Of a stretch of 64,000 bases of DNA, positions 17,295 through 43,862 are shown in pieces (the stretch's first letter is position 1; every line of letters begins with the position of its first letter). The notes under the pieces were generated by a model that saw only the letters and a program-made list of their open reading frames with translations, searched no databases and was not told where the DNA came from. The position numbers and the translations under genes are program-made. The stretch covers positions 88,650-152,649 of the forward strand of contig CAZNZL010000002.1 in NCBI GenBank assembly GCA_964577565.1. Reading direction: 5' to 3'. The stretch comes from an uncultured Candidatus Saccharibacteria bacterium (lineage in GTDB: Bacteria; Patescibacteriota; Saccharimonadia; Saccharimonadales; JAGQNJ01).

Positions 17295-17328
17295 TAAGTA
17301 TGTTGCCCACCATGACCTTACCGTTCGT

Positions 17329-18285
17329 TTAGTGTAGGCTTATAACCACTTCGTCGTCAGCGCCCTGGTCTTTTATACGCTTGGCCTGACCGGCGATAGT
17401 TTGAACAGAAAGATCATCACTGTTTTTGACAATATTTAGTATAGCAGGGTCGCGAGGAGGTGTCACGGCCTGAGTACTCTGTTTTGCTTCCTTTTGCACG
17501 GGGTTGCTTCCAGGCGGATTGATGGTTTTCATATTGCTGTATTCATTGTGCTGGCGAGGCTCGGCACCCGAGGCTTGATCATCAGCTATAACTGGCGGTA
17601 GGGTGGGTCTTGCGGCTTGTGCTTTTTGTTGTTCTTCTTTGGACTTCTCGATACTGCGCTTAACCGCATCCTTATATTTAACCGAGGCCTTACCAATTAA
17701 GTCGTCCATAGACTTAGCCCGTGGGTTAGCGGCGGGGTCTAGCATATCGGCTGCTGGTTCTGCTGCTACAACAGACCCGCTGAGAGCCGCTATATCTACA
17801 AGCCTATCAGAGCTGCTGGTTTGAGCACCAGGGTACATGTTTGTTGCGTTTTTTATGGCCCACCCACGAGTATCAAGCGTCGTGGCCAGGGTTTTAAGAC
17901 GGCTTTTAACCTCGTCTTGAGAATAGCCTTTGGTCAGCTGCTTTTCTTGCTTTTTGGGAGCGGTAATTGTGACCAACTGCTTAATACCGGTCTGGTCCCA
18001 TATGCGTCGGCGCGGCTTTAAAAAGAAGCGTATTTTTGCCAGTAGCCAGATTTCAGTTGACTGGGCACCGCCTAGCGGAGCCGATAGCAAGCCAAAAAAC
18101 AACGCCGGTGGCACAAATATGAAGCCTATTGGCCAAAAAGAGGTTAAAAATAATCTAACCGCCAAAAAGCCGCTTACAATGGTTATAACTGCGTATATAA
18201 ACTGGCGTAAACTCAGCCAGCCAATGAGCTTATCTTCTGCTTCAATATCTTGGATTACTTTATACTGCGCCATAAGTTTGTGCAT
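17329..18285 (-). CDS. Membrane protein with two N-terminal TM helices, T4SS-associated (VirB3-like topology?)
   Basis: Two N-terminal TM helices (FIYAVITIVSGFLAVRLFLTSFWPIGFIFVPPALFFGLL) followed by a hydrophilic domain. Located between the VirB6-like and VirB4 genes. Confidence 0.4.
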   Translation of the reverse strand: MHKLMAQYKVIQDIEAEDKLIGWLSLRQFIYAVITIVSGFLAVRLFLTSFWPIGFIFVPPALFFGLLSAPLGGAQSTEIWLLAKIRFFLKPRRRIWDQTGIKQLVTITAPKKQEKQLTKGYSQDEVKSRLKTLATTLDTRGWAIKNATNMYPGAQTSSSDRLVDIAALSGSVVAAEPAADMLDPAANPRAKSMDDLIGKASVKYKDAVKRSIEKSKEEQQKAQAARPTLPPVIADDQASGAEPRQHNEYSNMKTINPPGSNPVQKEAKQSTQAVTPPRDPAILNIVKNSDDLSVQTIAGQAKRIKDQGADDEVVISLH

Positions 18286-20081: not shown

Positions 20082-21128
20082 CTACAGTCCGCCCCCTATC
20101 GCCTGAGAAATAACCATAACAAGCCCTATTATAATAAGTGCAAATGTTGCAACTATCCTAAAGTAAGACCAAATGGCTCGCAGCTCAGAGCTATCGTACA
20201 GATTCTGACCATCTACATTAAGCAACGAATCAGCTATATCAAAGAGACTCGTTATACCATCAGACACGAGCTCTAAAATACCACAGACAATCCAGCCGGC
20301 GCTAAGACCCATTCTTTCGGTACATGACTGAGCTTGTTCTGAAGTGCTTTCATCGGCTCTAATGTCATACTTACCCCTGGGAGCTTCAATAACTATGTTA
20401 AGAATTTCTGAAGATTTTTTTATGGCAGGTATACATTTATCAGCTACAACCGAACAAAGCTGATACGTGCCGGGATTTATATTGTCAAAGTTAGCGGTGT
20501 AGGCGACGCCGTCAGGGGTTGTTCGGCGGTTGGCCTGCTTGCGTGCGACTTCTGCACCACTTGAATTTTTTAAAGTTAATGTATCAGATGCCGGGGCCTT
20601 TGAGGCATCGATTGCATCCAGTCCCGAGTCTGTTAAATCCGCCCCCTCCCAGTCTATGAGACTAGTTGCTCTTATGATCTTTGTCTCCGGATTGTCGACA
20701 TTACTATTTGATCTATTTAGTGTAACGGGCGCATTCGAGAACTCTGAAATTACATTTTGTGGACAGGCAGGTACTTGAGAACTTGTGCCATTTCCAATAG
20801 AGTTTAAGGTTCTGGGTTGAGTTAATGTTACCCCTGCAGTATTTCCATTAGGGGGCACGAATATGCTAATAAACATCCCACACCTTGAATTGCCGTTAAC
20901 GAGACCTTGCACCAGTGCACCCTCGCCAGCATAAATACCAGCATTGCTGCTCTTTAGGTTGCCAAAAGTATCCCCCCCTATTGTAAGCCTGATAGTACTA
21001 GAGTCTACGAACGTTGCTGACATGTTTGGGGCAGCATGAATTGAACCACGTAATATGAGTGGGGATAAAAAATTAAACAGTAGTAAAGCCACCGAAGTAA
21101 GGAGGGAGGTTGTTTTTTTTATTTTCAT
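20082..21128 (-). CDS. Secreted protein with a C-terminal membrane anchor (348 aa), first gene of the minus-strand T4SS-like operon
   Basis: N-terminal signal peptide (TSLLTSVALLLFNFLSPLILRGSIHA) and a C-terminal TM helix (VATFALIIIGLVMVISQAIGG). Confidence 0.4.
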   Translation of the reverse strand: MKIKKTTSLLTSVALLLFNFLSPLILRGSIHAAPNMSATFVDSSTIRLTIGGDTFGNLKSSNAGIYAGEGALVQGLVNGNSRCGMFISIFVPPNGNTAGVTLTQPRTLNSIGNGTSSQVPACPQNVISEFSNAPVTLNRSNSNVDNPETKIIRATSLIDWEGADLTDSGLDAIDASKAPASDTLTLKNSSGAEVARKQANRRTTPDGVAYTANFDNINPGTYQLCSVVADKCIPAIKKSSEILNIVIEAPRGKYDIRADESTSEQAQSCTERMGLSAGWIVCGILELVSDGITSLFDIADSLLNVDGQNLYDSSELRAIWSYFRIVATFALIIIGLVMVISQAIGGGL

Positions 21129-26406: not shown

Positions 26407-26420
26407 CTTGTGATTACGCT

Positions 26421-26511
26421 GGCGGAGGGGGTGGGATTCGAACCCACGAGACCCGTTAGGGCCTGCTGGTTTTCAAGACCAGTGCACTAGGCCGGACTAT
26501 GCGACCCCTCC
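26421..26511 (-). tRNA. tRNA-Ser (anticodon TGA), class II with long variable arm
   Basis: Reverse complement folds as GGAGGGG...CTGGT-CTTGAAA-ACCAG...long variable arm...GGTTCGAATCC...CCCCTCCGCCA. The CCA end appears to be encoded. Confidence 0.85.
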
Positions 26512-27027
26512 AACTTTGTTTGCTCTAAGAATGTAGTGTTGTTCCAAATGGCAGTTGGGACACAGCAGCTTTAAATTATTTGGATCATTGTTTGTCCTGT
26601 CTCTGTTAATATGGTGAATGTGTAATATATCCACCCTATTATAACCACATAATTCACACATATTTCCTCGAACTTTAATGATTCTTGCGCGAATCGCTTT
26701 TTGTGTTTCTAGTTGATCATATGGACGTTCAACTTTGTATTTCATACCCGCTCTATTTTTGTTTGAGCACTCTCTACTACAAGTCTTCTTGTTTAAGCCA
26801 GCTAGAAATGGTTTATTACAAATAATGCACGGTTTCTCTTTCCTGCATGATTTTCCATAACATGCCATACTACAAAAAACCCTACCTTTGCTATTTTTTA
26901 TCTCTACAGGTCTTTTGTATATTGGTTTGGCACAAAAAATACACTCAATATTTGGTTTCCTGATATAACGTTCGCTCACTAAGTCAGTATGCCAGGTTTT
27001 TAATGTGCGGAGCGGGAGGGATGACAA
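26497..27027 (-). CDS. HNH endonuclease (His-Me finger) with Cys-rich zinc-binding modules
   Basis: C-terminal HIHHINRDRTNNDPNNLKLLCPNCHLEQH is the HNH motif, and multiple CxxC pairs lie upstream. The last ~5 codons run into the 5' end of tRNA-Ser(TGA), so the true stop and expression are uncertain. Confidence 0.7.
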   Translation of the reverse strand: MSSLPLRTLKTWHTDLVSERYIRKPNIECIFCAKPIYKRPVEIKNSKGRVFCSMACYGKSCRKEKPCIICNKPFLAGLNKKTCSRECSNKNRAGMKYKVERPYDQLETQKAIRARIIKVRGNMCELCGYNRVDILHIHHINRDRTNNDPNNLKLLCPNCHLEQHYILRANKVGGVA

Positions 27028-27177
27028 CGTCTACAGCCATGCTCTCCGTCAACTGACGGATGCGCGTGGCTTTGATGAGCGCACCACTCGCTCACCATCG
27101 GCTCCGCCGCTGACCGCGAGGAACCGTATCCTACCACATCATTATTTTTACAATGACCTGCGGTCATTTCAAAATAT

Positions 27178-27270
27178 TGGCGGAGAGGGAGGGATTCGAA
27201 CCCTCGCGGGAGATTGCTCCCCCCTAACGATTTAGCAAACCGTCCCCTTCAGCCACTTGGGTACCTCTCC
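27178..27270 (-). tRNA. tRNA-Ser (anticodon GCT), class II
   Basis: Reverse complement GGAGAGGTACCCAAGTGGCTGAAGGGGACGGTTTGCTAAATCGTT...long arm...GGTTCGAATCCCTCCCTCTCCGCCA. Confidence 0.85.
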
Positions 27271-27569
27271 TCGTCAGAACCGACGGTCACCTTCCACAAA
27301 AGTTTTTAAACCAACTTTTGTTTCTCGCTTTGGTCGCTTCTTCCTCTCAGTTTTCCAAACGGTCAAATCGGCTGTAGCCGCTCCTTCATTTGAAAAACTG
27401 GGTTAAAAAGCCACTAAATACAAAAAATGCTTTATAAATCCATTGCTTTTTGGTATCAACATAGCAAGCACGCTATAACAGAGGTAAATTATACCATTCA
27501 TTCTTAATAAAGACAATTCATCTCTTCTCTGCTTTGGTTTCCTAATCATAAACCGGTAAAATGTAACTA

Positions 27570-28250
27570 ATGGATGCAGAAATCAGAAAGCGCACACAGC
27601 TTAAACTTTTTATAACCCAATTCTTGTTACCACAACCTATTGAGTTGCTCATTTACTTGTTTGTGAGCCTGCTAATACTGTTAATCACAACTAACCGCGT
27701 GTTGTTACAGATATTATCTGGCAGCAGCCCGGTGCCTGAGGCGGGTATCTCTGAGGTGCTCTCTCAGCGAGCCGACAGTTTTGATCAATTGTTGGCAATT
27801 CCTATATTGGGCCGAGTAGTCTTGTTCTTATTTTGGTTGGCGATTGGTAGCGTAGTATACATGTTGGTGTGGGTGTTTCAGAATATGGCGGTAGAGGTTT
27901 ATGATGATTTAACCTTGGCAAAGATAACCGACCCGCGAGCGCGCCAAGCCGCCAGTGAGGAGCTGCAAGAAGAATCAGAAGACGGTGGTTGGTGGGGCAC
28001 CACGCTGGCACATACAATTTTTGTTGGCTCGGGCGTAATTTTGTTTCTCTTCTTTTTGATTATTGCGGTTAACGGGCTGTTGCCGTTGTGGTCACAACTG
28101 TTTCAAATTGGTTTGCAATCAATAGGCCAGCTGGCCAGCGTGCTTAAAATAATTATGTCATTACTGGGCACAATGGTGATGGTGCATGTTTTTGTGTTAT
28201 TTTGGAAGTTCTTTTTTAGACTTAAAGGCTACGTTTTCAACTCATTTTAG
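27570..28250 (+). CDS. Polytopic membrane protein, hypothetical
   Basis: Several predicted TM helices (LIYLFVSLLILLITT; VVLFLFWLAIGSVVYMLVWVF; FVGSGVILFLFFLIIAVNGLL; LLGTMVMVHVFVLFWKFFF). Confidence 0.5.
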   Translation: MDAEIRKRTQLKLFITQFLLPQPIELLIYLFVSLLILLITTNRVLLQILSGSSPVPEAGISEVLSQRADSFDQLLAIPILGRVVLFLFWLAIGSVVYMLVWVFQNMAVEVYDDLTLAKITDPRARQAASEELQEESEDGGWWGTTLAHTIFVGSGVILFLFFLIIAVNGLLPLWSQLFQIGLQSIGQLASVLKIIMSLLGTMVMVHVFVLFWKFFFRLKGYVFNSF

Positions 28251-28252
28251 CC

Positions 28253-28843
28253 TTGCGGGCGTGGTACAATACGCTTATGCAGCCAGACAACGATCAGCAA
28301 AATGATCAGCAAACGGGTCAATGGCAATTTGTACAAGAAGATTCGCCTCGTGATAGTGCAGCAACATCATCTGCGGCGGGTAGTGGTGAGTTTAAGTGGT
28401 CGGCGTCAGAGTTTGTGGCCTATCAGAAAAGCGGCGGCTGGTATATAGCAGTGTTTTTTGGCTTGATTGCCCTTTCGGTCATTATTTTTCTGCTTACCAA
28501 CAGAGACTACTTATCAGCAGGTTCAACCATTGTTATTGGTATATTATTTATGATTTATGCCTCGCGCCAACCGCGTGTGCTCAACTACCAAATTGATAGG
28601 TCAGGTGTGCGCATAGAAGAAAAATTATACCCATATGGCGTTTTGCGGTCTTTTGCGGTAATAGACGAGGGCAATATTCATTCCATTTCCCTACTACCCC
28701 TTAAGCGATTTATGCCCTCAATCAGGATGTATTTTGAACCAAAAGATGAAACAACCATTATTGAGGTGCTTGGTAACTACCTACCCAAAGAAGATAAAGA
28801 CCAAGACATGGTTGACCGCTTTATGCACAAAATCCGCTTTTAA
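28253..28843 (+). CDS. Membrane protein, hypothetical (Q/D-rich N-terminus, two TM helices)
   Basis: TM helices WYIAVFFGLIALSVIIFLL and STIVIGILFMIYA. Adjacent to the preceding membrane protein gene with a 2-nt gap. Confidence 0.45.
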   Translation: MRAWYNTLMQPDNDQQNDQQTGQWQFVQEDSPRDSAATSSAAGSGEFKWSASEFVAYQKSGGWYIAVFFGLIALSVIIFLLTNRDYLSAGSTIVIGILFMIYASRQPRVLNYQIDRSGVRIEEKLYPYGVLRSFAVIDEGNIHSISLLPLKRFMPSIRMYFEPKDETTIIEVLGNYLPKEDKDQDMVDRFMHKIRF

Positions 28844-28860
28844 AAACGGAGTGTTTCTTC

Positions 28861-28951
<91 letters not shown>

Positions 28952-28969
28952 GTTGTTGATTGTATCAAA

Positions 28970-30358
28970 TTATCGCAGTTTTACTGGTACTTCTGTCGGG
29001 TAGATGCCATTCATACAGGCCATACATAGCTTACCAGCCATGGCGCTTAGGGCTCGTTGCAAGTTGCTTTCGGTCAGAAAATCAATGGAGTCAACCCCTA
29101 ACTCATTTTTCATGCCTTCACGATCCAAACGATTCGCAAGCAGATCAGCAGGGTTACCGGTATCCATACCATAAAAACACGGCCATTTATATGGAGGAGA
29201 AGATATTTTTAAATGTACTTCACTTGCCCCTGCTGCTCGTAACATGCCTACGAAGGCCTTCATAGTGGTGCCCCGAACAATTGAATCGTCAACTACGACG
29301 AGTCGCTTATCTGCAATAATGCTGCTTAAAGGATTTAGCTTTAGTCTGACCGCTGAATCTCGTTCCATTTGATCTTCTTTAATAAAGGTGCGGGTTATAT
29401 ACCGGTTTTTTTCTATACCCAGTTCAAACGGAATACCACTAGCTTGGGCAAAGCCTAAGCCGGCGTACGTGCCTGAGTCGGGGACGCCAAGCACCATATC
29501 TGCATCAGGGATGTCTTGCTCTGCTAATAGGCGTCCCATCTCTTTGCGAGCTGAAGCAACGCTAATTTCGCTAATCTCAGAACTTGGTCGGGCAAAATAG
29601 ACATATTCGAAAGCACACGTTTTTTGATCGCTTTCGGCGTACATGTCTGACCAAACACCGGCTGGCCCGATAGAGATAATCTCCCCTGGTAGAATTTGTC
29701 GGTCGTGAGTTGCACCAACTTGATTTAAAGCTGCCGTTTCACTGGCTACTACATACCCTCGACCATCCTTATATACGCCTATTTCAAGCGGACGAAAACC
29801 ATGACGGTCTCTAAAGGCAATTAACCTGTCTTCAGTCATGACAACTACCGAATAGGCGCCATCCGTACGCGCCGTCACCCGAGCAATCGCTGCCTCTAGT
29901 TCCTCATCTTCTTTCCATTCGCAAGCTATCTCATTTACCAACCAGTCGGTATCGGTGCCAAAAGGATTATGCTCAAGTTCTATGTGCCCATTGTGTGCCA
30001 AAGCAAAATGACGGCCATCATTCTGGTTGTGGTAGATGGGTTGAGCCGCTTCAAAGCCAGATCCTTTTGTAGTGCCGTATCTGGTGTGAGAAATGGCGAT
30101 TTTACCTTCTTGCACAAACCCATTACGTACGTGCTTGGTCATCACTTCAGATACAAGTCCGCAGCCTTTCGCGCCGCTAATGCCCTCCTCTTCTGATGCG
30201 ACCATAAAACCAGCTGCATCCTGGCCACGGTGTTGCAATGCCTCAGCACCTAAATAGGCAATTTTAACGACATCTTCACCAGGAGCGTATACCCCAAATA
30301 CGCCGCACGCCTCGCGTGGCTTATCTGCTTCGTAGTCTGGCAGCAAGAGTTCGCCCAT
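28970..30358 (-). CDS. purF: Amidophosphoribosyltransferase (glutamine-PRPP amidotransferase)
   Basis: N-terminal nucleophile context (CGVFGVYAP), Ntn glutaminase domain, and a C-terminal PRTase motif (LVVVDDSIVRGTT). Confidence 0.8.
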   Translation of the reverse strand: MGELLLPDYEADKPREACGVFGVYAPGEDVVKIAYLGAEALQHRGQDAAGFMVASEEEGISGAKGCGLVSEVMTKHVRNGFVQEGKIAISHTRYGTTKGSGFEAAQPIYHNQNDGRHFALAHNGHIELEHNPFGTDTDWLVNEIACEWKEDEELEAAIARVTARTDGAYSVVVMTEDRLIAFRDRHGFRPLEIGVYKDGRGYVVASETAALNQVGATHDRQILPGEIISIGPAGVWSDMYAESDQKTCAFEYVYFARPSSEISEISVASARKEMGRLLAEQDIPDADMVLGVPDSGTYAGLGFAQASGIPFELGIEKNRYITRTFIKEDQMERDSAVRLKLNPLSSIIADKRLVVVDDSIVRGTTMKAFVGMLRAAGASEVHLKISSPPYKWPCFYGMDTGNPADLLANRLDREGMKNELGVDSIDFLTESNLQRALSAMAGKLCMACMNGIYPTEVPVKLR

Positions 30359-30471
30359 TTATTTGTAGTATAAAAGTGCATAATCATATGCGCAATTAAA
30401 TAGTGTTGTCAAATTATAAGATTAGCCACTAGTATTACCTCTGTAAATGTGGTACTATATCCTAGTTCTTT

Positions 30472-32136
30472 TTAAAGGAAGAAGCGACCAGAGCGTGAAA
30501 GAAAATTAAACTTGGTTTTCTGTAGGGCGACCGTTGATTCTGACGTGCACCCGTAGTTCAGCTGGATAGAACGTCGGCTTGCGGAGCCGGAGGTCACAGG
30601 TTCGAATCCTGTCGGGTGTACCATATCGCTAATTTGAGTCGTTTTTGAACGGCTCATTTTTACTTTTAAAGAGTAAATCTCACTAACTTTAGGGGTGTAA
30701 ACTTTTTCGGCTGACTCAAACATTACTCTGTCTTTAAACAACAATTGTTTACACTCCCAGAATGTTGTACCCTGTAACGTCCACCAGTTTTGTCTTATAT
30801 GCTCGGCAAAGTCGATAGCAAACTTGGAGAACTCTATAAAATCTTCATCAACACTACTGGCTTGTACTATCTGTTTCCCAACATCTTCTATCTCCAGTTT
30901 TATCCTATCAATCTCAGGCTTTATATCCTCAGCTAGGTCAGGATTGAGGCTTAGACTTAGCACCAAGCTGCTTTTCTTTGACAGTAGTTCGTCCTTAAGG
31001 TTTCTCAGGTTCTTGGCTCGTTCTAAGCGGTAAACTTCTTCCTCTTTCCATACAAATTCAAGGGCGGATTTAAGGTCCGCCCTGGTATCGTCCGTCATCT
31101 CTAAATCGTCTAGAACATCGTTGATAGCCTTGTGCATTGTGTCTCGTGGGTAAGCCTTTTTGCACACCCTACAATGATAGTCGTTCCGCACCCAGCCTTT
31201 ACCGTTTTTGTGTACGCCGCCAGTAAATCTGCCCTCGTGTTTAGCATCTAAGCAATTGGCGTGATTAATAATGTTCTTTAAGGGAAACTCGGGGTTAAAC
31301 TGTTTCTTGCGTGTCTTCTTACGACCAGAAACAATTGCAACATTACGTTCGTATTCTTCGGGACTTATCATAGCCTCGCGTAGGCCTTTAGCTTCGGGCC
31401 AACCCTCTTTGATGAATATCCTGCCACAGTAATATGAGTCCAGCACAATAAGGTGAAAACGCTGCATATCTATTTTATTGCCTTGTGCAGTAGTGAATCC
31501 GCTGTCAAGCAGCCATCTCAGGGCTTCTGCTTCGGTCATAGCAAGCCTAGATATAGCTTTAAGTGCCGTTTGTAGCAATTTAAAACGGTTGCCTCTATCG
31601 TCTCGAACGTGAAGTCCTGCAACAGTGCCTTTCCTATAACCTAGATGTGGGTAGAACGGATAATAGCCATCAGCAACACGTTCTTTCATCTTGGTTGTAA
31701 CCGTAAGTATGCGTTCTTCGTTTTCTACTTCTGCATCATAGCTACCACGAGCCAATTCATACGACGCTTCGGCGGTATCGCCGTTGTATTTATGCTGGGA
31801 TGGGTCGCAGAAGATTAGCTTAACACCAAGCTGCTTAAACAAAACCTTAAAGTAGAACACCATATCAAGCTCACGCATAAAACGGCTTACCTTATCAACG
31901 AGTAAAAATTGTATGCCTTTGTTGTGCTTGCAGTAGGACAGGGCTTCTAGTAAGTCTTTCCGCCTCAGGTTTTTACCCTTTTTGCTAGAGGTTGCCATAG
32001 CCCACTCGTGAACAATTTCGGCTTCTAACTCATCAGCCATCTTGTTTACGCTAGATTGCTGTTGCTTCAAACTGTGATTGTTATCTTTTTGCTTCTTAGA
32101 TGAAACTCGCCTTATGGCGATTGCCTTTGCTTTCAT
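30472..32136 (-). CDS. Large serine recombinase (resolvase catalytic domain + recombinase domain + zinc ribbon), probable integrase of a tRNA-Arg-linked element
   Basis: N-terminal AIAIRRVSSKKQ...SLKQQ and LLVDKVSRFMREL...GVKLIF match the resolvase catalytic domain. CRVCKKAY is a zinc-ribbon. The C-terminal ~50 codons read through the tRNA-Arg in antisense (TGFEPVTSGS), so the annotated C-terminus may be artificially extended. Confidence 0.7.
   Translation of the reverse strand: MKAKAIAIRRVSSKKQKDNNHSLKQQQSSVNKMADELEAEIVHEWAMATSSKKGKNLRRKDLLEALSYCKHNKGIQFLLVDKVSRFMRELDMVFYFKVLFKQLGVKLIFCDPSQHKYNGDTAEASYELARGSYDAEVENEERILTVTTKMKERVADGYYPFYPHLGYRKGTVAGLHVRDDRGNRFKLLQTALKAISRLAMTEAEALRWLLDSGFTTAQGNKIDMQRFHLIVLDSYYCGRIFIKEGWPEAKGLREAMISPEEYERNVAIVSGRKKTRKKQFNPEFPLKNIINHANCLDAKHEGRFTGGVHKNGKGWVRNDYHCRVCKKAYPRDTMHKAINDVLDDLEMTDDTRADLKSALEFVWKEEEVYRLERAKNLRNLKDELLSKKSSLVLSLSLNPDLAEDIKPEIDRIKLEIEDVGKQIVQASSVDEDFIEFSKFAIDFAEHIRQNWWTLQGTTFWECKQLLFKDRVMFESAEKVYTPKVSEIYSLKVKMSRSKTTQISDMVHPTGFEPVTSGSASRRSIQLNYGCTSESTVALQKTKFNFLSRSGRFFL
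30547..30623 (+). tRNA. tRNA-Arg (anticodon read as GCG)
   Basis: GCACCCGTAGTTCAGCTGGATAGAACGTCGGCTTGCGGAGCCGGAGGTCACAGGTTCGAATCCTGTCGGGTGTACCA. The anticodon loop TTGCGGA gives GCG by my hand fold, which should be verified. Confidence 0.75.
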
Positions 32137-32744
32137 GGTTCATTGTTCCTTTTAACCAAAAAGCAGCCCTTTGGGTAAGCCAGTGGAATGGCAAAGGACT
32201 GCTCTTTGAAATCGATTACTAATTAACCACTATATTACCCAGTTATGAATTGTGATTGCCTCACTGAGGCATTGCAACTTTTCTATTTCATTTTATAAAT
32301 GGCATAGAGAAACTTAGCCCAATCAAGTGCTTCCGCGGACGGCTTCCTGGTCTTTGTTTGTTTCTCGGCCAATTGAAAAACAACCCTTTCTTAACCCGAT
32401 ACCAACGTCATTATTTGAATAATTTGCGTGCTTTACGTTGAATCGAATTAGGGTTGTTCTATAGGCTTACCTTGTTTACTTTACTGCCTATAATGATACC
32501 AAATTTAGAGGGCTAAATCAAGCGTACTACCCCCGTTATTTAGTTCATAGATAAACATAAAGTTATGTGGTTATTCCGCAATAATACGCACTCGTATCTT
32601 TTACTTATGAGTAAAGTTTTTTCAGAAATACGGTCCGAATAGGGTTGCTTGAATGGTACATTGATTGGTTCGAATATTTGTAAGGCTTTTGGTAGTTACT
32701 TTCTCTGTTTAACTTTTTGCATAATATTCTGATATATTAGAGCC

Positions 32745-33164
32745 ATGGTTGAGTTGTTTAATACTCCTTTGAGTTCGCCTGTTTACATAGGGCTTCTCGT
32801 TGTTTACTTTATTTGTGAATCAATATCAACGTTTGATACCAGAATCATACAGGCTAAGAAAAACGGATTTCTAAGAGAAGATGAAGCATTTGTCCCTCAA
32901 TGGACAGGCATATTTGCAATTCTTGGCTGGCTTTCTTTTCTTGGTCTGATACTCCTCAACTGGAAAATTGCGATAGCTGTCTTTATCATTAAGTTCATTC
33001 TAAAAGTTGCACCTGTGCTAGAAAATATCGGTGCGTTACTGCTACTTCCTGTAGTTGGTAAAGAAACTGCTTCAGCGGTTAATGTTATGAGTAGAGAACA
33101 GAATAAGGCCGCCAAGTCATTGAAAGCAATGTCCAAAGCGGCTAAAGACAAAAGAGCACCTTAG
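32745..33164 (+). CDS. Small membrane protein, hypothetical (element cargo)
   Basis: Three hydrophobic helices (VYIGLLVVYFICESIS; IFAILGWLSFLGLILLNW; IAVFIIKFILKV). Confidence 0.4.
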   Translation: MVELFNTPLSSPVYIGLLVVYFICESISTFDTRIIQAKKNGFLREDEAFVPQWTGIFAILGWLSFLGLILLNWKIAIAVFIIKFILKVAPVLENIGALLLLPVVGKETASAVNVMSREQNKAAKSLKAMSKAAKDKRAP

Positions 33165-33391
33165 ACTTCATAAATCTGTTTGTATTCAAAGATACGTCAA
33201 TAATTTGGGTGTATGCCTGCAAAATGGCCTAGGTGGCTTGGATTATTTAAATAATCCTGTAAGGTCGTCTAAGGAACTACGAGCTTCAATTTCTATCTGT
33301 TAAATCAGTGATTTTAATGAAAGCAAAGCACTGGTTTAACGACGCCTCTGTGAGCTATTTTGAGCGTGTTTGACAGGTTTTAGCTGCTTAG

Positions 33392-34561
33392 TTGTTAATA
33401 TGTATTTATGAGGGAGCTACTTTAGTGCAACGCGAGTATAGCGTAAACGATTCAACGTACGGACATTTTATGTTCAAAGGTATAAATGTTCTTGAACATA
33501 ATGTAGACGAAGAATTCAATAACATTTATCATACGCTTGCATATTCAGTTTGGGCCAATATCCCTGGGGATACGGGCAGATTGTTTTCTAACGATTTTGT
33601 TGCTAAGAGTGTGGACTATTTTTCGACTAGGACAGATAATGGCCAAGCAGTTTCTGACGGTGATAAATATATTGAAAATCTAACGATTATTCCCAACAGG
33701 TTCAAGGATGCTGGTAATGTAAAAGCTAGTTTTATATCTTGGCTGAAAATTCTTGAGCTTCTAAAAAATATTGAAGACAGATCTGGCAGCAAAATTCATA
33801 AAGGTACTGCGTTCTATTTTGCCGCTGGCGATGCAATTGAATCAAATGATTTTGAGTCCGGCATGATTATGATGCATCTGGCATTGAACGAAGACATTGC
33901 AAATAATCCAGACTGGGAAAGTACACCTGCACACGCATTTATGACAGTAAACCCTGAGAATGTCGGGCAATATCACAAGCCCCTCGTAGATGAAATGTCT
34001 AACTTAATAAAGAGACGACTAACCGAAGACCAAAAGAGTTATAAAAATTCTAGAAATGGCAATCTTGTTTATGATGATTTTAGGTCAAAATTTCTAAACA
34101 ACACAAACAAGGTCCAAACTTCAGCCAGATACTATTTTGTGTATAGCCTGCTTCGATTCTGGCACATGCGAAAAATTCATAAAGCACGTGTAACTGATGA
34201 CGTAATAGCTCCTTTGGTTTTTGGTAATTTGGTTGGTTCACTAACTCTTGTTGTTGAAACCTTATTGAGGGGAATTGTTCCTGCACCAACTAGGCCGTCG
34301 ATGGCTACAATTCTGCAATCGTTAAACATGGGAATTGATATTGGTTCACTCCAAGCAGAGACTGAAGCAAATGGATTTGACGCAACAATCAATTCTCTTA
34401 TTAGCGACGATTCAATAGAAAGTGACTTCAAAATTGCTTACCTTTGCAGAAACCAGGCCTTTCATGTATTGGAAAATGAGAACGTATACAACCAGCATTA
34501 TATTGAAATCACTCAGTCAATTTTTAATTGTATATTTTATACAGTCGAGAACCATCATTAA
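33392..34561 (+). CDS. Hypothetical protein (389 aa), element cargo
   Basis: Long ORF with no motif I recognize. Confidence 0.4.
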   Translation: MLICIYEGATLVQREYSVNDSTYGHFMFKGINVLEHNVDEEFNNIYHTLAYSVWANIPGDTGRLFSNDFVAKSVDYFSTRTDNGQAVSDGDKYIENLTIIPNRFKDAGNVKASFISWLKILELLKNIEDRSGSKIHKGTAFYFAAGDAIESNDFESGMIMMHLALNEDIANNPDWESTPAHAFMTVNPENVGQYHKPLVDEMSNLIKRRLTEDQKSYKNSRNGNLVYDDFRSKFLNNTNKVQTSARYYFVYSLLRFWHMRKIHKARVTDDVIAPLVFGNLVGSLTLVVETLLRGIVPAPTRPSMATILQSLNMGIDIGSLQAETEANGFDATINSLISDDSIESDFKIAYLCRNQAFHVLENENVYNQHYIEITQSIFNCIFYTVENHH

Positions 34562-35484
34562 GGAAAAGTATGGCAAGGCCAAACAAGAAACAGCATAAAG
34601 TTCCGAAGTCATACATGGAGCCATTTACAGACAAAAATGGCCTTGTATGGGTCGCAGATAAGAATCTAAGGCTCTATCAGGAAAAGCCTAAAAATATTTT
34701 GACTGAGAACGATTACTACACAGTTCGATTTCCTAGTGGTGGCGGAACATTGGCAATTGAAACTAAGTTTTTGGGTGGGATTGAGGCAAGCTATGCGGCA
34801 ATTTATAAAAACAAAATATCTAAGCATGAACTGTTGTCTGACGAAGAAAGGGCGATAGTTGCTATCTTTATTGCTTCAATGCTGGAACGAAGCCCACGCA
34901 GGCGAGAGGCAATCCAAGATATGTTTGACCAGGTAAAGAATATAACGGAAAAGATGCGAGCATCAGTAGCTGCTATGACACCTGAGCAAAGAAAAGTATT
35001 TGAGAGTCAGTCAAAACTAATTGGTGGCAATCCAGATAATTCAATCCCAGCTGATGAATTCTTAAAAGCAGGTGAAGATGTTGGTTCATTCCATAGTTCT
35101 GGAATACCAGAAAGCGTAGCAGTTACTGCACCACTAATTTATGAAATGAAATGGGCGTTTTTGATTCGACCCAAGGAATCAGAACCATTTATAACTTCAG
35201 ATAGTCCATGCACCTTTGATATTCCAACTTTACCGCCAAAATCAATATTCGGAGGGCTGGGCCATAAAGATGTTGAGGTAAGTATGGCAATGTCGCCCGA
35301 TATTGCGATTTTGTGCGGCTATCAAATGGAACAAGATTGGGGCTATATGCCCGCCAAAGAGTCAGAAGTACAGGAAATTAACAGAAGAATAAGGAGGAGG
35401 AGCGAGACGCTTGTAAGCAACGACAAACTACTCCTAGAAAGACAAATTGAGAGAATCAAGTCACTTATTAATCAAAAACCTTAA
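34528..35484 (+). CDS. Hypothetical protein, possibly DUF4238-like
   Basis: The N-terminus KKQHKVPKSYMEPFTD resembles the HxVPxxYLxxF start of DUF4238 proteins, which are common in defence and mobile islands. This is a weak call. Confidence 0.35.
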   Translation: MYILYSREPSLRKSMARPNKKQHKVPKSYMEPFTDKNGLVWVADKNLRLYQEKPKNILTENDYYTVRFPSGGGTLAIETKFLGGIEASYAAIYKNKISKHELLSDEERAIVAIFIASMLERSPRRREAIQDMFDQVKNITEKMRASVAAMTPEQRKVFESQSKLIGGNPDNSIPADEFLKAGEDVGSFHSSGIPESVAVTAPLIYEMKWAFLIRPKESEPFITSDSPCTFDIPTLPPKSIFGGLGHKDVEVSMAMSPDIAILCGYQMEQDWGYMPAKESEVQEINRRIRRRSETLVSNDKLLLERQIERIKSLINQKP

Positions 35485-35690
35485 CTGCATTATTTAAATA
35501 ATTTTGCCTTTAATCAGGGTTGCTTAGGGTTAATAGGTGTTTAGGTCTTTATAGACTAAGGGTTCTATGCCCCCCGGGCTATAACTACTATACTTACCGG
35601 TGCTCTTATATGAGTGATACTCACCAGCGATGATACTTCGCCATCTCTGTAACTCTAGGGTAAGCGGGTGTAAATTTTCACACAGGTAGA

Positions 35691-35733
35691 GTACCACGAA
35701 AGGAGCCAGGTTTTATCCTGGCTTTTTTCGTGG
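35691..35733. repeat. Hairpin module A, copy 1 (GTACCACGAAAGGAGCCAGG-ttttat-CCTGGCTTTTTTCGTGG)
   Basis: Seen directly in the sequence. A near-identical copy lies at 37818-37860. Confidence 0.7.
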
Positions 35734-35853
35734 CTGTTCTGACATGATTCTGGTTCTGTGACAGAGATTTTGCGTAAGCAAAATATCGTAGTCACGGGTT
35801 CGCTCATGAGGAACTATCGCATCCGCCAGCTGGCGGAGAGAAAGTGACGAAAT

Positions 35854-35878
35854 GTTGTCATCCTGCCTTGGTGTACCA
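35854..35878. mobile_element. attR-like degenerate copy of the tRNA-Arg 3' end
   Basis: GTTGTCATCCTGCCTTGGTGTACCA compared with tRNA-Arg 3' end GGTTCGAATCCTGTCGGGTGTACCA is about 17/20 identical with one indel over the 3'-most 20 nt, ending in the identical GGTGTACCA. Confidence 0.5.
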
Positions 35879-35965
35879 GAGTGGAATTACAGATAGGGAT
35901 TGAAATCGTTTTCAATCTCTTTTTTGTTGGATATTTCTTAACACCTTGGAATGAGTTTGAATCCC
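35871..35965 (+). repeat. Cassette-boundary module B, copy 1 (GTGTACCA core + terminator-like hairpin + promoter-like segment)
   Basis: GTGTACCAgagtggaattACAGATAGgGATTGAAatcgtTTTCAATCTCTTTTTTGTTGGAtATTTCTTAACACCTTgGAAT...GAATCCC. The hairpin at 35898-35917 is followed by a T-run. Confidence 0.7.
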
Positions 35966-36021
35966 GTTTGGTGTTTTGCTTGTGCTTGGGATTGAAGTCA
36001 CAATCACCTAAGATTAGATTT

Positions 36022-36402
36022 ATGGCGCTGGAAGATTTATCAGGATTAGTTCAAAGGCTACGTGAAGAAGGCATCAGAACCGAAAGGCTTGATGACTGGC
36101 AGAATAAAGGTCTGCTTGGGATAATGCTCGGTACAGAAAGCGGAGCTTACTATATCGTGGAGCCGGTAGGTAATCCAAGTTTAGTCACAAGGCTTTCCGA
36201 AGCACCCCCATATTATGGTGAATACAGAATGCCTGCTACAGAGGCGATGGTGCGAAGACAAGGAAATCCCGATAGAAGATTGGAATTAGGAAATCCTATG
36301 AATATATTAGGACTTTCAAGAAAAGGTCCAGAGTTTGACCCTGACTCACTATATACAACCACTCCCCTAGTTGAAATTACTTACCTGGAAGCTGCCGGCT
36401 AA
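36022..36402 (+). CDS. Hypothetical cassette protein
   Basis: The ORF track starts at 35881, but residues 1-47 are translated repeat sequence. Start reassigned to MALEDLSG at 36022. The stop TAA at 36400-36402 abuts module B copy 2. Confidence 0.45.
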   Translation: MALEDLSGLVQRLREEGIRTERLDDWQNKGLLGIMLGTESGAYYIVEPVGNPSLVTRLSEAPPYYGEYRMPATEAMVRRQGNPDRRLELGNPMNILGLSRKGPEFDPDSLYTTTPLVEITYLEAAG

Positions 36403-36522
36403 AATTGTTTGAACTTCGTGTACTACCGTGTACCATTTGGTAATTACAGATAGAGATTGAAGTCGCTTTCAATCTCTTTTTAGTTGGACAATTTTAAACA
36501 CCTTAGAATAAGTATGAATCCC
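36403..36522 (+). repeat. Cassette-boundary module B, copy 2
   Basis: aaTTGTTTGAACTTCGTGTACTACCGTGTACCAtttggtaattACAGATAGAGATTGAAGTCGCTTTCAATCTCTTTTTAGTTGGACAATTTTAAACACCTTAGAATaagtaTGAATCCC. It begins immediately after the stop codon. The hairpin at 36455-36474 is followed by a T-run. Confidence 0.75.
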
Positions 36523-36589
36523 ATATATCATCTTGCTTATGCTTGCGCTGCTCGACCCTCATCGTTACTATAGATTTAAGGAGATTTCT

Positions 36590-36967
36590 ATGTCTGGTGA
36601 AAAAATTGGTCAAGAAGCTGATTTGTTAGCTCAGAAAGAACTGTGGGCGCAGTCTATGGCAGACCTAGTTACTACTGAAAGAGGGATAGATGAGGAAACG
36701 GCACTTTCAGCAGCTCGCTGGGCTTGCTTGTGGGTGGATGACTATAAAACTCTAATGGCTGCGCAACCACCAGCTAATTTAGATGAAGTCAAAGCTCACC
36801 TCGAAACCGCAAGAGTAAGCTCACTAGAGAGAAGCACTGGTTTGACGCGTTACCCTACGGGAGTACCTACATTGCGCGCGATTATTGCAGCACAAGATGT
36901 ATTTTGCTGGGCTTTTGGGGATGAAGCAGAAGATGTCAGGCAGCTGCTTGATACTCAGCCAGAATAG
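36590..36967 (+). CDS. Hypothetical cassette protein
   Basis: The ORF track starts at 36533 inside the repeat. Start reassigned to the ATG at 36590, which is preceded by AAGGAG (MSGEKIGQEADLLAQKE...). The stop TAG at 36965-36967 abuts module B copy 3. Confidence 0.5.
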   Translation: MSGEKIGQEADLLAQKELWAQSMADLVTTERGIDEETALSAARWACLWVDDYKTLMAAQPPANLDEVKAHLETARVSSLERSTGLTRYPTGVPTLRAIIAAQDVFCWAFGDEAEDVRQLLDTQPE

Positions 36968-37080
36968 TTTGAACTTCGTGTACTACCGTGTACCATAGTG
37001 AAACTACAGATAGAGATGAAGCACATTTCAGTTTCTTTTTTGATGGATATTTCTTAACACCTTAGAATCCATTTGAACCC
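36968..37080 (+). repeat. Cassette-boundary module B, copy 3 (hairpin partly degenerate)
   Basis: TTTGAACTTCGTGTACTACCGTGTACCAtagtgaaactACAGATAGAGATGAAGcacaTTTCAgTTTCTTTTTTGATGGATATTTCTTAACACCTTAGAATccaTTTGAACCC. Confidence 0.75.
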
Positions 37081-37135
37081 TGTTAAGTGTTTTTCATTAC
37101 CTTATTGCATTTTGTAATGTATATGTGCTATAGTA

Positions 37136-37396
37136 ATGAATATGAAGAATACTATTACTATCACCAGCAAGGGGCAGGCAACCATTCCAGCTTCTTATCG
37201 TCGCAAACTAGGGGTAGGAGCAAACGGAGGCACTCTAGATATACGTTTTGATGAATCTAGGGGCGAACTTGTTATAGCAAAGCCATTAAGCGTAGAGGAG
37301 TTAAGCGAAAAATTAAGTGGTTATATAAAATCAGGGACAAAGCCTCTGGTTGATGTTGATGCTTATTACCAGAAGAATCGTGACGGTCGCAAATAA
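37136..37396 (+). CDS. AbrB/MazE/SpoVT-family antitoxin (VapB-like)
   Basis: TITSKGQATIPASYRRKLGV is a swapped-hairpin beta-barrel motif. The stop overlaps the start of the PIN gene (ATGA). Confidence 0.65.
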   Translation: MNMKNTITITSKGQATIPASYRRKLGVGANGGTLDIRFDESRGELVIAKPLSVEELSEKLSGYIKSGTKPLVDVDAYYQKNRDGRK

Positions 37397-37800
37397 TGAG
37401 ATTCGGCGGCTCATTAGACACGAATGCATTACTGAGGTTACTCTTGAATGACGTGGCCGAACAGCACAAGGCCATAAAAAAATTACTACGTGAGGCGAAG
37501 GGCCAGCTTGCGGTTGCCGACATTGCGATAATTGAATTGGTGTTCGTGCTTGAAAGATACTACGGCTTTTCCCGTCAACAAGTCAGCGAAGCTGTCACCG
37601 GACTTATGCTACTCCGAGAAATAAACTGCAACCGCCCGCTATTTGAAAAAACGCTACCCATTTATATAAGCCATTCTGCACTATCTTTTGAAGATTGCTG
37701 CCTGAGCACATACGCGATACTCAATCAGGCTGAACCCTTATGGACCTTTGATAAAAAGCTGGCTACTCAAGCGAACAGCGCCAAGCTAATTGCCGTTTGA
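37396..37800 (+). CDS. PIN-domain toxin (VapC-like)
   Basis: N-terminal acidic residue in LDTNALLRLL and further conserved acidic residues. The stop TGA lies inside the conserved GTTTGAACTT repeat start. Confidence 0.65.
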   Translation: MRFGGSLDTNALLRLLLNDVAEQHKAIKKLLREAKGQLAVADIAIIELVFVLERYYGFSRQQVSEAVTGLMLLREINCNRPLFEKTLPIYISHSALSFEDCCLSTYAILNQAEPLWTFDKKLATQANSAKLIAV

Positions 37801-37860
37801 ACTTCCCTTACTACCGTGTACCACGAAAGGAGCCAAGTATTATCATGGCTTTCTCGTGGT
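37801..37860. repeat. GTGTACCA junction + hairpin module A, copy 2
   Basis: ACTTCCCTTACTACCGTGTACCACGAAAGGAGCCAAGtattatcATGGCTTTCTCGTGG. Direct repeat of 35691-35733, terminating the cassette array. Confidence 0.7.
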
Positions 37861-37888
37861 TTCTACAACCGGGTTTGTATCAGGATTG

Positions 37889-38560
37889 TTACAATGTCTC
37901 AACCAATTTAACTAACTTTCGGGTTCTTGCCAGGTTTCTAATTACAGTCCTTTTGTGGTTGAGCCGTTTATGCAGAATCACTTTGTGCTTTGGTCTGGCC
38001 TCAATTATTGCGTTGAATGTTCTTATTGCGCCGTCAAAAGGAACTATCTCATCGGAGTGACTAGATATCAACAGTACCCTCTTATTTTTATAGTTTGCAA
38101 GATCAGGATATTGAAGCCGTGACCATGCGCTTCTAAGCGTCTCTTCGTTATAGTTGGTTTTTTTGAAGTATTCGCGAATATGCGGCATGCGCCAAACAGC
38201 TTGGGCAACGTCACCCCCAGTATTCATTACACACCAATCAACTTCAGGTATTCTTGCCATACAGTTGTACCCAATAAATGCACCTAAACTACTGCCAAAA
38301 ATGCCTACAGTAGTGTTTGTGCTTAAACCGCTGATCTTGCTCTGCAACGAGCTACAGACTTGGTCAATAGCTGAAATTAATCCATTTGGGTCCCCAGCTG
38401 ACCAAATGCTTTCCTTGAACTCATAGGCTTCTACGGAGTAGCCCAGTCTCACCAATGATTGTATTGGTAGCCTACACCGAGAGATAGTTACGCCATACGG
38501 GCAAAGAAAGAAGATGAATTTATCTTTATTGTTGCCAAATGCTTTACTCTTGAATAACAC
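37889..38560 (-). CDS. Alpha/beta hydrolase fold esterase/lipase-like protein
   Basis: GxSxG nucleophile elbow GIFGSSLGAFIGYN, about 220 aa. Confidence 0.5.
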   Translation of the reverse strand: MLFKSKAFGNNKDKFIFFLCPYGVTISRCRLPIQSLVRLGYSVEAYEFKESIWSAGDPNGLISAIDQVCSSLQSKISGLSTNTTVGIFGSSLGAFIGYNCMARIPEVDWCVMNTGGDVAQAVWRMPHIREYFKKTNYNEETLRSAWSRLQYPDLANYKNKRVLLISSHSDEIVPFDGAIRTFNAIIEARPKHKVILHKRLNHKRTVIRNLARTRKLVKLVETL

Positions 38561-38927
38561 AGTTAGATTATACAGGGCGAGACTATGAAGCAGTATTAGT
38601 TATGCTAGTTCTTGCTTTGTTAAAAATACTGTACCGCGGGCAAGTCCAAGACACGCTGTCAAGGGTGCTACCGTTGATAATGTTTCTCGGGCGCTGTGTA
38701 AGTTTTCAAGTCACCCACAACCAGAAACATTAAGACTCAGACCACTGCTCGCTTCAGTTGAAGTACCGCCCATTAATGACGAAGCTCGTCAAATTCTACA
38801 GGAATTAGTTCTGAGATAATCCCTCATCTTGAAGATCAATTACGTGAGCAAGACAGAAGTCGCATAAAATAATAAGCTATATTTTGCTCATGCTTGCAAT
38901 TGATACGGATTATGCTAGGGTTTAAGT

Positions 38928-43778: not shown

Positions 43779-43862
43779 TCTTTAATATCAAATTACATAG
43801 AACATGTTTTGCTTGTGCTTGCAAGGTTTTTTGAAATGCTATATATTCTCTAGTGCTTACTA

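Follow-up and report, generated by a model that had tools for sequence, protein, structure and literature searches.

A large serine recombinase gene that very probably contains its own attachment site, in an integrative element at a Saccharibacteria tRNA-Arg gene

The DNA analyzed here (the window) is a stretch of 64,000 nt from contig CAZNZL010000002.1 of an uncultured Candidatus Saccharibacteria bacterium (assembly GCA_964577565.1), and all coordinates are window positions. Directly behind a tRNA-Arg(gcg) gene, an integrative element of 5,073 bp occupies window 30624-35696; it belongs to a family from Saccharibacteria of the candidate phyla radiation (CPR). The best explanation of our results is that this element is mobilized by a large serine recombinase (LSR) and that the 3' end of the LSR gene itself contains the attachment site, attP, a reading that we consider very probable. 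We place a similarly high degree of trust in the element itself, its boundaries, and the split LSR gene as they are described below. An initial annotation of this DNA had proposed an element of ∼5.3 kb at the tRNA-Arg gene; the integrated element and its LSR stand, and the length is corrected to 5,073 bp with a right end at 35696, because continuity of the LSR open reading frame (ORF) and a conserved protein tail fix the junction at that position.

The recombinase gene and its detached 3' end

In the integrated state, codons 1–504 of the LSR gene are element DNA (30624-32136), and the last ∼50 codons are the antisense of the tRNA gene and its flank (30472-30623), with the protein being read antisense to tRNA-Arg(gcg) from codon 505 on (…SD/MVHPTGFEPV…, where the slash marks the junction). 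The earlier observation that a recombinase gene abuts this tRNA and overlaps it in antisense is thus borne out, as the ORF at 30472-32136(-) passes through the tRNA at 30547-30623. At the opposite end of the element, a minus-strand segment of 55 codons plus a stop encodes a C-terminal tail (MVLYLCENLHPLTLELQRWRSIIAGEYHSY...). Joining 35696 to 30624 continues the LSR ORF in frame into this tail, to give a gene of 504 + 55 = 559 codons. The same circular joining of the far end to the LSR 3' end produced an in-frame continuation of the ORF in 14 of 14 elements that were reconstructed, with predicted LSR lengths of 541–575 amino acids.

An alignment of the tails from these 14 reconstructed elements and two unsplit proteins has the consensus [LM]V..[LV].K.[LF]H.[IL]..E[LI].RW[RQ].I[LI]…Y..Y, in which the E and W are invariant and the V and H are nearly so. 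Within the tail, the entropy at codon positions 1–3 is 0.94, 0.80, and 1.27 bits, respectively, and the Arg codons before the invariant TGG vary freely; a third codon position that is the most variable is the pattern expected under protein-level selection. In addition, tblastn searches with the tails from two other loci (L004 and L099) match the window at 35569-35697(-), with E values of 5e-4 and 4e-3. There is no stop or frameshift in either LSR piece of the window, and the same is true of all 14 reconstructed elements. This conserved in-frame continuation places attP within the LSR gene and identifies 35530-35696(-) as the gene's severed 3' end. Upon integration, a conserved C-terminal helix is replaced by residues read from the antisense strand of the tRNA.

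The LSR ORF has no stop codon of its own in 21 of the 21 homologous loci that have a resolvable LSR 3' end, and in these loci it reads 23–152 nt into a tRNA gene, a tmRNA gene, or an arm inside an array. We see the overlap of the LSR ORF with a tRNA as the mark of an integrase gene with attP inside it, and not as a coincidence.

Free forms of related elements were also identified. Three proteins among the family representatives (P0036, P0098, and P0109) carry the tail unsplit. P0036 is encoded on three 4,636-nt contigs (L126–L128) from three sequencing runs or samples; the ends of each contig overlap by 30 nt, and rotation superimposes all three exactly, with 0 mismatches, on one circle of 4,606 bp. 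On this circle the LSR ORF crosses …GCTCCAGCTCCACCA/AGAGGG…, where a P arm is joined directly to a terminator-bearing P' arm. The P arm ends in GCTCCACCA, which is identical to the tmRNA 3' end in L004, L006, and L007, and attP is inside the ORF. The unsplit P/P' junction in the circle is exactly what the reconstruction predicted, and further unsplit copies are present in P0098, P0109/L129, and L105. Thus, both the 14 continuations and the unsplit gene on the circle show an ORF that spans attP when the element is free and is cut by integration. The 4,606-bp circle also encodes a DnaJ-domain protein, a DUF5681 protein, and several small ORFs, and no replication gene was recognized on it. Contig L129 (10,619 nt, possibly circular, with a 23-nt terminal overlap) encodes a type I restriction-modification system and a T5orf172 protein; its LSR gene is frameshifted but unsplit, and its attP is intact.

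The protein is a genuine large serine integrase that belongs to a small, distinct family. Its catalytic domain matches Pfam PF00239 (Resolvase) at residues 6–142 (E = 9e-13), and R10, V11, and the nucleophilic serine, S12, are invariant across the family alignment, as are C295, C322, and C325; H309 was invariant in the first family alignment. The Pfam Recombinase domain has no match in the window LSR, so that sequence models see the catalytic domain alone. An AF2 model (pLDDT 76) contains in addition an alpha-E helix, a recombinase domain, a zinc ribbon, a beta-ribbon, and a long coiled coil, and residues 493–554, the tRNA-encoded tail, are disordered in it. The best Foldseek matches of this model are the full-length serine integrases 9dxd/9dxf, Bxb1 (9iu2), and PhiC31 (9rah), to which 530–550 columns align, and it also matches the C-terminal domain of the LI integrase-DNA complex (4kis). 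The recombinase therefore compares well with characterized large serine integrases, a comparison that the initial annotation had proposed.

Attachment sites and target RNAs

GTACCA is the only sequence common to the junctions at 30623 and 35696, and the sequences to the right of this core are wholly different. At other loci the cores are 6–11 nt long. A short shared core between otherwise dissimilar arms is as expected of a serine integrase, and crossover in the window probably falls within the 6-nt GTACCA. The 3' end of tRNA-Arg is the B arm of attB and is now the left half of attL. Since crossover is at the CCA end, the tRNA is never interrupted. We reconstructed attP by joining 35650-35696 to 30624-30690 and attB by joining 30580-30623 to 35697-35740. 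The predicted attP junction of the window element would read ...GGTAGAGTACCA/TATCGCTAATTTG..., and the predicted empty site would read ...GGGTGTACCA/CGAAAGGAGCC.... In a synthetic version of the model, the attP junction would be GGTGTAAATTTTCACACAGGTAGAGTACCA+TATCGCTAATTTGAGTCG, the empty attB1 junction TCGAATCCTGTCGGGTGTACCA+CGAAAGGAGCCAGG, and the cassette-circle junction ...CTACCGTGTACCA+TTTGGTAATTACAG.

Downstream of each target, the far-end arm precedes a copy of the last 6–7 nt of the local tRNA or tmRNA. This arm, GTGTAAR…CCA, is exactly 29 nt long in eight loci, and elements at tRNA-Gly have related far-end arms (GTGAAAAC, GTTGAAAC, and similar) when aligned by eye; in total, far-end arms were found in 14 elements across three kinds of target RNA. 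The elements at other loci are 3.7–9.3 kb long. A terminator-like hairpin with a T-run is present in the P' arm of the window element, antisense to the LSR 3' coding region, and equivalent P'-arm hairpins occur in 14 of 14 reconstructed elements, which suggests that the element's P' arm supplies a terminator for tRNA-Arg.

We considered the far-end GTGTAAA as a T-loop mimic for the zinc-ribbon domain of the LSR and dropped this idea, as the motif is present in the P arm because it is the antisense of the Leu-His codons of the tail. GTGTAAA also recurs in the LSR 3' coding region (window 30690-30760 and the same positions in other loci), as the antisense of K-V-Y-T-P and I-Y-T/S codons; an inverted copy lies at the E-C-K-Q codons of the LSR, and the P-arm motif itself is the copy in the detached tail (35668-35680). 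Coding constraints account for each of these copies, and the motif may also have a role at the DNA level.

The targets of the 21 loci are 17 tRNA genes, three tmRNA genes, and one array-internal arm: tRNA-Gly(gcc) in 12 loci, tRNA-Gly(ccc) in one, tRNA-Val(cac) and tRNA-Val(tac) in one each, tRNA-Arg(tcg) in one, tRNA-Arg(gcg) in one (the window), tmRNA in three, and an arm inside a tRNA-Met array in one (L003). Three further cases fall outside this set: L108, which duplicates a tRNA-Gly locus; L092, the fourth case at a tmRNA; and L101, at a tRNA-Gly-like gene. Use of tRNA and tmRNA 3' ends is a property of the whole LSR family (∼730 clusters at 50% identity), whose targets include tmRNA and no fewer than six different tRNAs. 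The initial annotation had called the use of a tRNA by a serine recombinase uncommon; earlier reports do exist and are few, and here the habit is family-wide.

The size of the family was derived from an exhaustive HMMER search, which found 729 LSR clusters (50% identity) at E ≤ 1e-30; a word-based search had found 28 relatives, one of which was named Candidatus Saccharimonadales. Our scan found no LSR relative on viral contigs, and there is therefore no pointer to a phage. In L003, two LSRs of another subfamily (Resolvase plus Recombinase Pfam domains) overlap tRNA-Met genes in antisense at their 3' ends, one at 16558-18174(+) over the tRNA at 18117-18192(-) and the other at 18840-20426(-) over the tRNA at 18809-18883(+); the habit therefore extends beyond the family studied here. 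One of these two LSRs heads an array of at least 17 kb that includes a member of the studied family.

Table 1. Features of the tRNA-Arg locus, its integrative element, the adjoining 182-nt unit (U2), and the cassette array
Feature	Window position	Strand	Description or evidence
LSR gene, integrated state	30472-32136	-	554 codons; Pfam Resolvase
tRNA-Arg(gcg)	30547-30623	+	intact, CCA encoded; ARAGORN; Rfam tRNA, 67.7 bits
attL core	30618-30623	+	GTACCA; comparison of junctions at 30623 and 35696
Terminator-like hairpin and T-run	30635-30656	+	terminator scan; P' arm of the element
Non-coding stretch upstream of the LSR gene	32137-32744		∼600 nt; no ORF of 50 aa or more
Cargo ORF	32745-33164	+	139 aa; hydrophobic; no family match
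Cargo ORF	33392-34561	+	up to 389 aa; no family match
Cargo ORF, DUF4238 protein	34528-35484	+	likely ATG at 34570; Pfam PF14022, E = 2e-34
Detached 3' piece of the LSR gene	35530-35696	-	55 codons plus stop; C-terminal tail
P arm of attR	35668-35696	+	GTGTAAATTTTCACACAGGTAGAGTACCA; 29 nt, GTGTAAA motif to terminal A
attR core	35691-35696	+	GTACCA, within the P arm
U2, ORF-less unit	35697-35878	+	182 nt; fold; related units in L130, L122, L133, and L107
U2 terminator-like hairpin	35697-35730	+	
U2 copy of the tRNA T-arm 5' half	35791-35802	+	GTCACGGGTTCG
U2 insert			57 nt, at the T-loop position, between the T-arm copy and the 3'-end mimic
U2 tRNA 3'-end mimic	35860-35878	+	ATCCTGCCTTGGTGTACCA; 16/18 match to the tRNA 3' end, one 1-nt gap
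Cassette 1	35879-36435	+	557 bp; ∼118-nt leader, ORF 36022-36402 (126 aa), 29-nt arm
Cassette 1 terminator hairpin	35895-35920	+	
Cassette 1 tRNA-like stretch	35955-35974	+	
Cassette 2	36436-36995	+	560 bp; leader, ORF 36590-36967 (125 aa), 29-nt arm
Cassette 3	36996-37823	+	828 bp; leader, MazE/AbrB-type antitoxin 37136-37396, PIN toxin 37396-37800, 29-nt arm
B'-type flank with terminator-like hairpin	37824-37875	+	∼83% identical to the U2 start; repeat family D4; distal end of the array

The 182-nt unit and the cassette array

Between the element and the first cassette is a 182-nt unit without an ORF (U2, Table 1), which ends in a tRNA 3'-end mimic. The initial annotation had found a degenerate tRNA copy at 35854-35878 and assigned it to the recombinase element as its attR. 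The copy is genuine, at 35860-35878, and it belongs to a separate 182-nt unit rather than to the element's end; the junction of the element is at 35691-35696, which is 182 nt upstream. In a shuffling test, which the annotation had named as one way to refute its proposal, 15 of 1000 shuffles of the 182-nt segment reach the score of the remnant, a modest significance when taken alone, and GGTGTACCA occurs twice against 0.30 occurrences expected, with 6 of 100 shuffles reaching two. The tRNA derivation of the remnant rests instead on the context in L130, a contig that shares its study series with the one other contig found to encode an identical PurF. L130 holds a unit 87% identical to U2, in which the homology begins exactly at GTACCA/CGAAAGG; to the left of this point is the arm of a YecM cassette that is unrelated to the window's LSR tail. 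At the corresponding place in L130, the mimic reproduces 18 nt of the tRNA-Arg end perfectly (ATCCTGTCGGGTGTACCA), and a cassette with the same leader comes next. Because a homologous unit carries a perfect copy at this place, we conclude that the remnant at 35860-35878 is tRNA-derived.

As an RNA, U2 folds far better than its shuffles (z = -5.9). Units of the same design that copy the local tRNA are present between tRNA-Arg(tct) and a cassette like cassette 2 (L122), between tRNA-Met and a cassette like cassette 1 (L133), and between an LSR element and two cassettes at tRNA-Gly (L107); an nhmmer search with U2 against the loci fetched up to that stage found no further copies. The start of U2 (35697-35750) is ∼83% identical to the sequence after the last cassette in a local alignment of 54 columns. 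We read U2 as a putative spacer with a displaced or duplicated copy of the 3' third of the tRNA, which may serve as a second attB that holds the cassette array. In this reading, older cassettes are attached at the second attB of U2, and new insertions go to the live tRNA.

The three cassettes lack an integrase, and each contains one or two ORFs on the plus strand. Each begins with a conserved hairpin leader of ∼118 nt; a terminator was called in cassettes 1 and 2, and the leader hairpin of cassette 3 is diverged and gave no terminator call. Each ends with a 29-nt arm, GTTTGAAC…GTGTACCA, that equals the tRNA segment from the T-loop to CCA (24 nt) plus 5 nt. The 5-nt longer spacing (29 versus 24 nt) of the cassette arms is only a lead for the geometry of the attP and attB half-sites. 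GTGTACCA is present five times in the window (30616, 35871, 36428, 36988, and 37816, all on the plus strand) against an expected count of 1.27, and 0 of 100 shuffles reach five, in agreement with the recurrence of the core in the cassette array that had been noted previously.

The cassettes and U2 are bounded by GTACCA junctions and thus form a tandem series of units without a recombinase, as is also seen in L003, L100, and L107. In these three loci, the units behind the LSR elements lack an integrase, measure 0.6–1.9 kb, and have arms of 29 nt; the arm of a 637-nt unit in L006 is a poor fit to the motif. The layout of an LSR element, a short unit with a tRNA 3' copy, and then cassettes is also found at tRNA-Gly (L107/L108) and tRNA-Met (L003). 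In L124, tRNA-Arg(ccg) is immediately followed by homologs of the cassette 2 protein; in L122, such homologs come behind tRNA-Arg(tct) and a U2-like unit. The cassette 1 protein has homologs upstream of U2 in L130, as opposed to its position downstream of U2 in the window, and behind tRNA-Met and a U2-like unit in L133. Thus, the cassettes change place and partner while they stay tied to tRNA 3' ends, and the content of the array differs between the window and L130.

We considered the cassette junction repeats as attC-like palindromes and rejected this assignment, as the repeats are direct, tRNA-like arms. A promoter-like sequence, TGTTTTGCTTGTGCTTG, occurs at 35972-35988, 38880-38896, and 43805-43821, before small ORFs inside and beyond the cassette array; given its recurrence beyond the array, the variable region may reach past 37823. 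A further candidate, a 28-nt sequence at 38696-38723 (GTGTAAGTTTTCAAGTCACCCACAACCA, ending in AACCA), was examined as the decayed arm of an older LSR element, and tblastn with LSR tails gave it no support. It stands behind a minus-strand alpha/beta-hydrolase gene (37889-38560).

Alternative readings, proposed cycle, and related systems

Several results weigh against an LSR with attP inside its own gene as the agent that built this locus. The circle described above belongs to a homolog that is 39% identical over the full reconstructed sequence rather than to the window element, for which neither an empty site nor an attP junction was found, with one close contig in the collections. The tail helix, which follows a disordered linker, is modeled at low confidence (pLDDT about 50–63). 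The cassette arms (GTTTGAAC...) differ from the LSR element's own arm (GTGTAAAT...), and for this reason mobilization of the cassettes in trans by the window LSR is something that we infer. Moreover, to form the P/P' junctions seen between cassettes, the enzyme would have to recombine attP with attL or attR. Canonical LSRs recombine attP with attB only.

The last two of these points bear on a different explanation of the array, that the small cassettes are moved by another recombinase, or by homologous recombination at a hotspot, and share only tRNA-derived repeats with the element. This is a possible, though in our view not the leading, account of the cassettes. It is consistent with arms (GTTTGAAC..GTGTACCA) unlike that of the LSR element, with junctions that are not canonical attP x attB products, and with the presence of cassettes in L122, L124, L130, and L133, where the sequence available contains no LSR gene. 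Nevertheless, the 29-nt geometry and the terminal core are common to cassette and LSR arms, cassettes co-occur with family LSR elements at three target tRNAs (the window, L100, L107, and L003), no tyrosine recombinase or integron integrase was found among the ORFs from 28 to 56 kb of the window, and the 29-nt repeats are too short and too diverged for efficient homologous exchange. An LSR of this type acting in trans is, in our view, the most likely mover of the cassettes.

It is unlikely that the element is a dead remnant, fixed at an immobile locus, in which the tRNA overlap and the far-end peptide are functionless relics. Such a view would fit the failure to find an attP or empty-site read for the window element, the integrated LSR gene that has lost its conserved tail, and the frameshifted LSR of L129, which shows that members of the family decay. 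On the other hand, both LSR pieces of the window are intact (504 + 55 codons), as they are in all 14 reconstructed elements, the circle of the homolog is present in three samples, and array content varies between the window and L130.

PurF, encoded next to the element, is closest to that of a Candidatus Saccharibacteria genome. A search of genome contigs via PurF returned a sole useful relative, L009 (PurF 63% identical), which keeps the gene order tRNA-Ser(cga)-purF-tRNA-Arg(gcg) and has no recombinase at its tRNA-Arg, with genes for a ParE toxin-antitoxin system and Fic coming next. L009 is too distant to be used for a nucleotide-level empty site, and none was obtained; an exact PurF look-up found one 1.6-kb contig only, which is broken inside the tRNA. 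The comparison with strains lacking the insertion, suggested in the initial annotation, thus provided a relative without an LSR at the same tRNA-Arg, and no empty tRNA-Arg site was recovered.

The boundary first proposed, with an element running from the tRNA to 35878 (∼5.25 kb), the remnant at 35860-35878 as attR, and crossover deeper in the tRNA, is very improbable: the remnant is the longest tRNA-like stretch downstream, and remnants of 17–32 nt after the LSR elements in L107 and L003 suggest that an LSR element and a short unit might travel together, but ORF continuity and the conserved tail place the junction at 35696, circles and unsplit copies join P to P' directly without a U2-like unit, most LSR elements (L004, L007, L097, L099, L100, L104, L106, L116, and L117) have no such remnant, and L130, L122, and L133 contain a U2-type unit without an adjoining LSR element.

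With attP inside the LSR gene, the free form of the element would be a circle on which the 559-codon LSR ORF runs across attP. This circle would recombine with attB inside the last 6 nt (GTACCA) of tRNA-Arg, leaving the tRNA intact and placing a new terminator directly behind it. Integration cuts the LSR gene, such that 504 codons stay by the tRNA and are read into antisense tRNA as an unstructured tail, and the last 55 codons, encoding the conserved helix, are moved 5 kb away to the other end of the element; excision would rebuild the full gene. The 182-nt unit may act as a second attachment site, to which the three integrase-less cassettes, each with its own terminator and promoter-like leader, would have been attached. 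The exchange of the C-terminal tail presumably alters the activity or directionality of the LSR between the free and integrated states. More tentatively, and with considerable doubt, the LSR family could combine a built-in directionality switch that needs no separate factor with a serine-recombinase analogue of the integron at the CCA ends of tRNA and tmRNA genes in CPR bacteria, whose genomes are reduced. As a switch, only the free circle would encode the conserved C-terminal helix, and thus the integration-competent enzyme, and the integrated copy would encode a tail-swapped enzyme that is either excision-competent or silenced. The integron analogy would add landing pads that mimic tRNA and integrase-less cassettes.

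The literature searched contains no description of these Saccharibacteria elements and no report of a serine integrase gene that is split by its own integration; integrases with attP in their own gene were previously known only among tyrosine recombinases (SSV type and Mx8 IntP). There are earlier, rare reports of serine integrases that target tRNA or tmRNA genes and of tandem arrays there. A long-standing view in the field is that tRNA genes are not used by serine integrases. According to the Islander paper, no serine integrase is known to have a tDNA target (PMC4383910), the TIGER survey places 14 of its 297 serine-integrase elements at tRNA or tmRNA genes, treats these cases as unproven, and asks for proof (PMC7192596), and a large serine recombinase is present in 27 of 937 elements in the tycheposon preprint (bioRxiv 10.1101/2020.12.28.424599). 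The window element departs from the Islander definition in that its far end repeats only 6 nt of the tRNA rather than a displaced tDNA fragment, and its sole recombinase is of the serine family rather than a tyrosine integrase.

The closest described system is that of the Dehalococcoides ssrA islands (McMurdie et al. 2011, PMC3146451). As in the window, the CcrB-like DsiB (∼540 aa) is encoded on the reverse strand beside attL at the 3' end of a tRNA-like gene (tmRNA), and the islands form tandem arrays downstream of the target, with many lacking an integrase and thought to be mobilized in cis or trans (PMC3146451). The ssrA islands differ in having a 20-bp direct repeat and insertion at the T-loop, compared with a core of 6–7 nt at the CCA end, and DsiB works with a second, small serine recombinase, DsiA, with no split of the DsiB gene described. 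The window LSR scores 24 bits against the NCBIfam CcrB equivalog model, whose cut-off is 900, and is by this measure not an ortholog of CcrB/DsiB; no second Resolvase-domain ORF that could be a CcrA/DsiA-like partner is present within 30624-35696. In SCCmec/Ccr of staphylococci, an LSR likewise directs insertion to a specific site, the 3' end of a conserved gene. Its composite tandem arrays include recombinase-less pseudo-elements bounded by short repeats, as in the window; its target is rlmH (orfX), it uses a CcrA/CcrB pair or CcrC, and its attP is outside the recombinase gene.

Among tyrosine recombinases, the "suicidal" SSV-type integrases likewise have attP in the integrase ORF, and integration at a tRNA splits the gene, a disruption proposed to control directionality without a recombination directionality factor (Badel et al. 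2020, PMC7253208). These enzymes are described as restricted to archaea so far (PMC7253208), and their split yields two inactive halves, whereas in the LSR family only the last 35–65 codons are detached and the recognized domains stay in one piece. By the account of Tojo et al. (1996) cited in PMC4383910, myxophage Mx8 also has attP inside its integrase gene, with IntP becoming IntX. Mx8 is a phage rather than a 4–9-kb element, its IntP is a tyrosine recombinase, and it has no cassette array; the fold and motifs of the window LSR are of the serine type, which sets it apart from the SSV/Mx8 class. The target of Mx8 is reportedly the 3' end of tRNA-Asp genes.

The row of small, mostly single-gene cassettes in the same orientation, beside a recombinase and a fixed attachment point and with a toxin-antitoxin pair included, resembles an integron. 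Unlike integrons, with their tyrosine IntI, attI, and attC palindromes, the window has neither a tyrosine IntI nor attC-type palindromes, its cassettes have their own promoter-like and terminator sequences, and its recombinase is itself on a mobile unit. Prochlorococcus tycheposons are also small, cargo-carrying elements that form islands at tRNA genes; they occur in another phylum, have mostly tyrosine integrases, and carry replication genes, and neither the tycheposon nor the TIGER paper describes integrase-gene splitting or crossover at a CCA end.

Serine integrases are the main tools for inserting large DNA, and their direction is normally set by a separate factor. If integration does rewrite the C terminus of the LSR, this would be a new, compact form of direction control for integrase tools. 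The genomes of Saccharibacteria are very small, and few routes by which these bacteria exchange genes are known. The LSR family offers a concrete mechanism of gene gain in these bacteria, by way of 4–9-kb elements with defense-type cargo and 0.5–0.9-kb cassettes that include toxin-antitoxin pairs.

The cargo of the window element consists of three ORFs (Table 1). For one of these, a DUF4238-like N terminus had been noted; DUF4238 is present, and the resemblance is full-length rather than merely N-terminal. Its product also has a weak match (E = 6e-06) to the PADLOC candidate defense family DUF4238-Pers. The non-coding stretch at 32137-32744 is presumably the LSR control region. It has no Rfam match, and Rfam finds only tRNAs in the whole window. 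In two tmRNA-targeting elements, L007 (9364-9488(-)) and L092 (3066-3186(-)), a LOOT RNA (Rfam RF03000, 79–87 bits) occupies the equivalent position, in divergent orientation to the LSR gene and ∼0.5 kb upstream. On the other side of the element, window 26420-30623 contains three tRNA-Ser genes (tga, gct, and cga) and the tRNA-Arg gene inside 4.2 kb.

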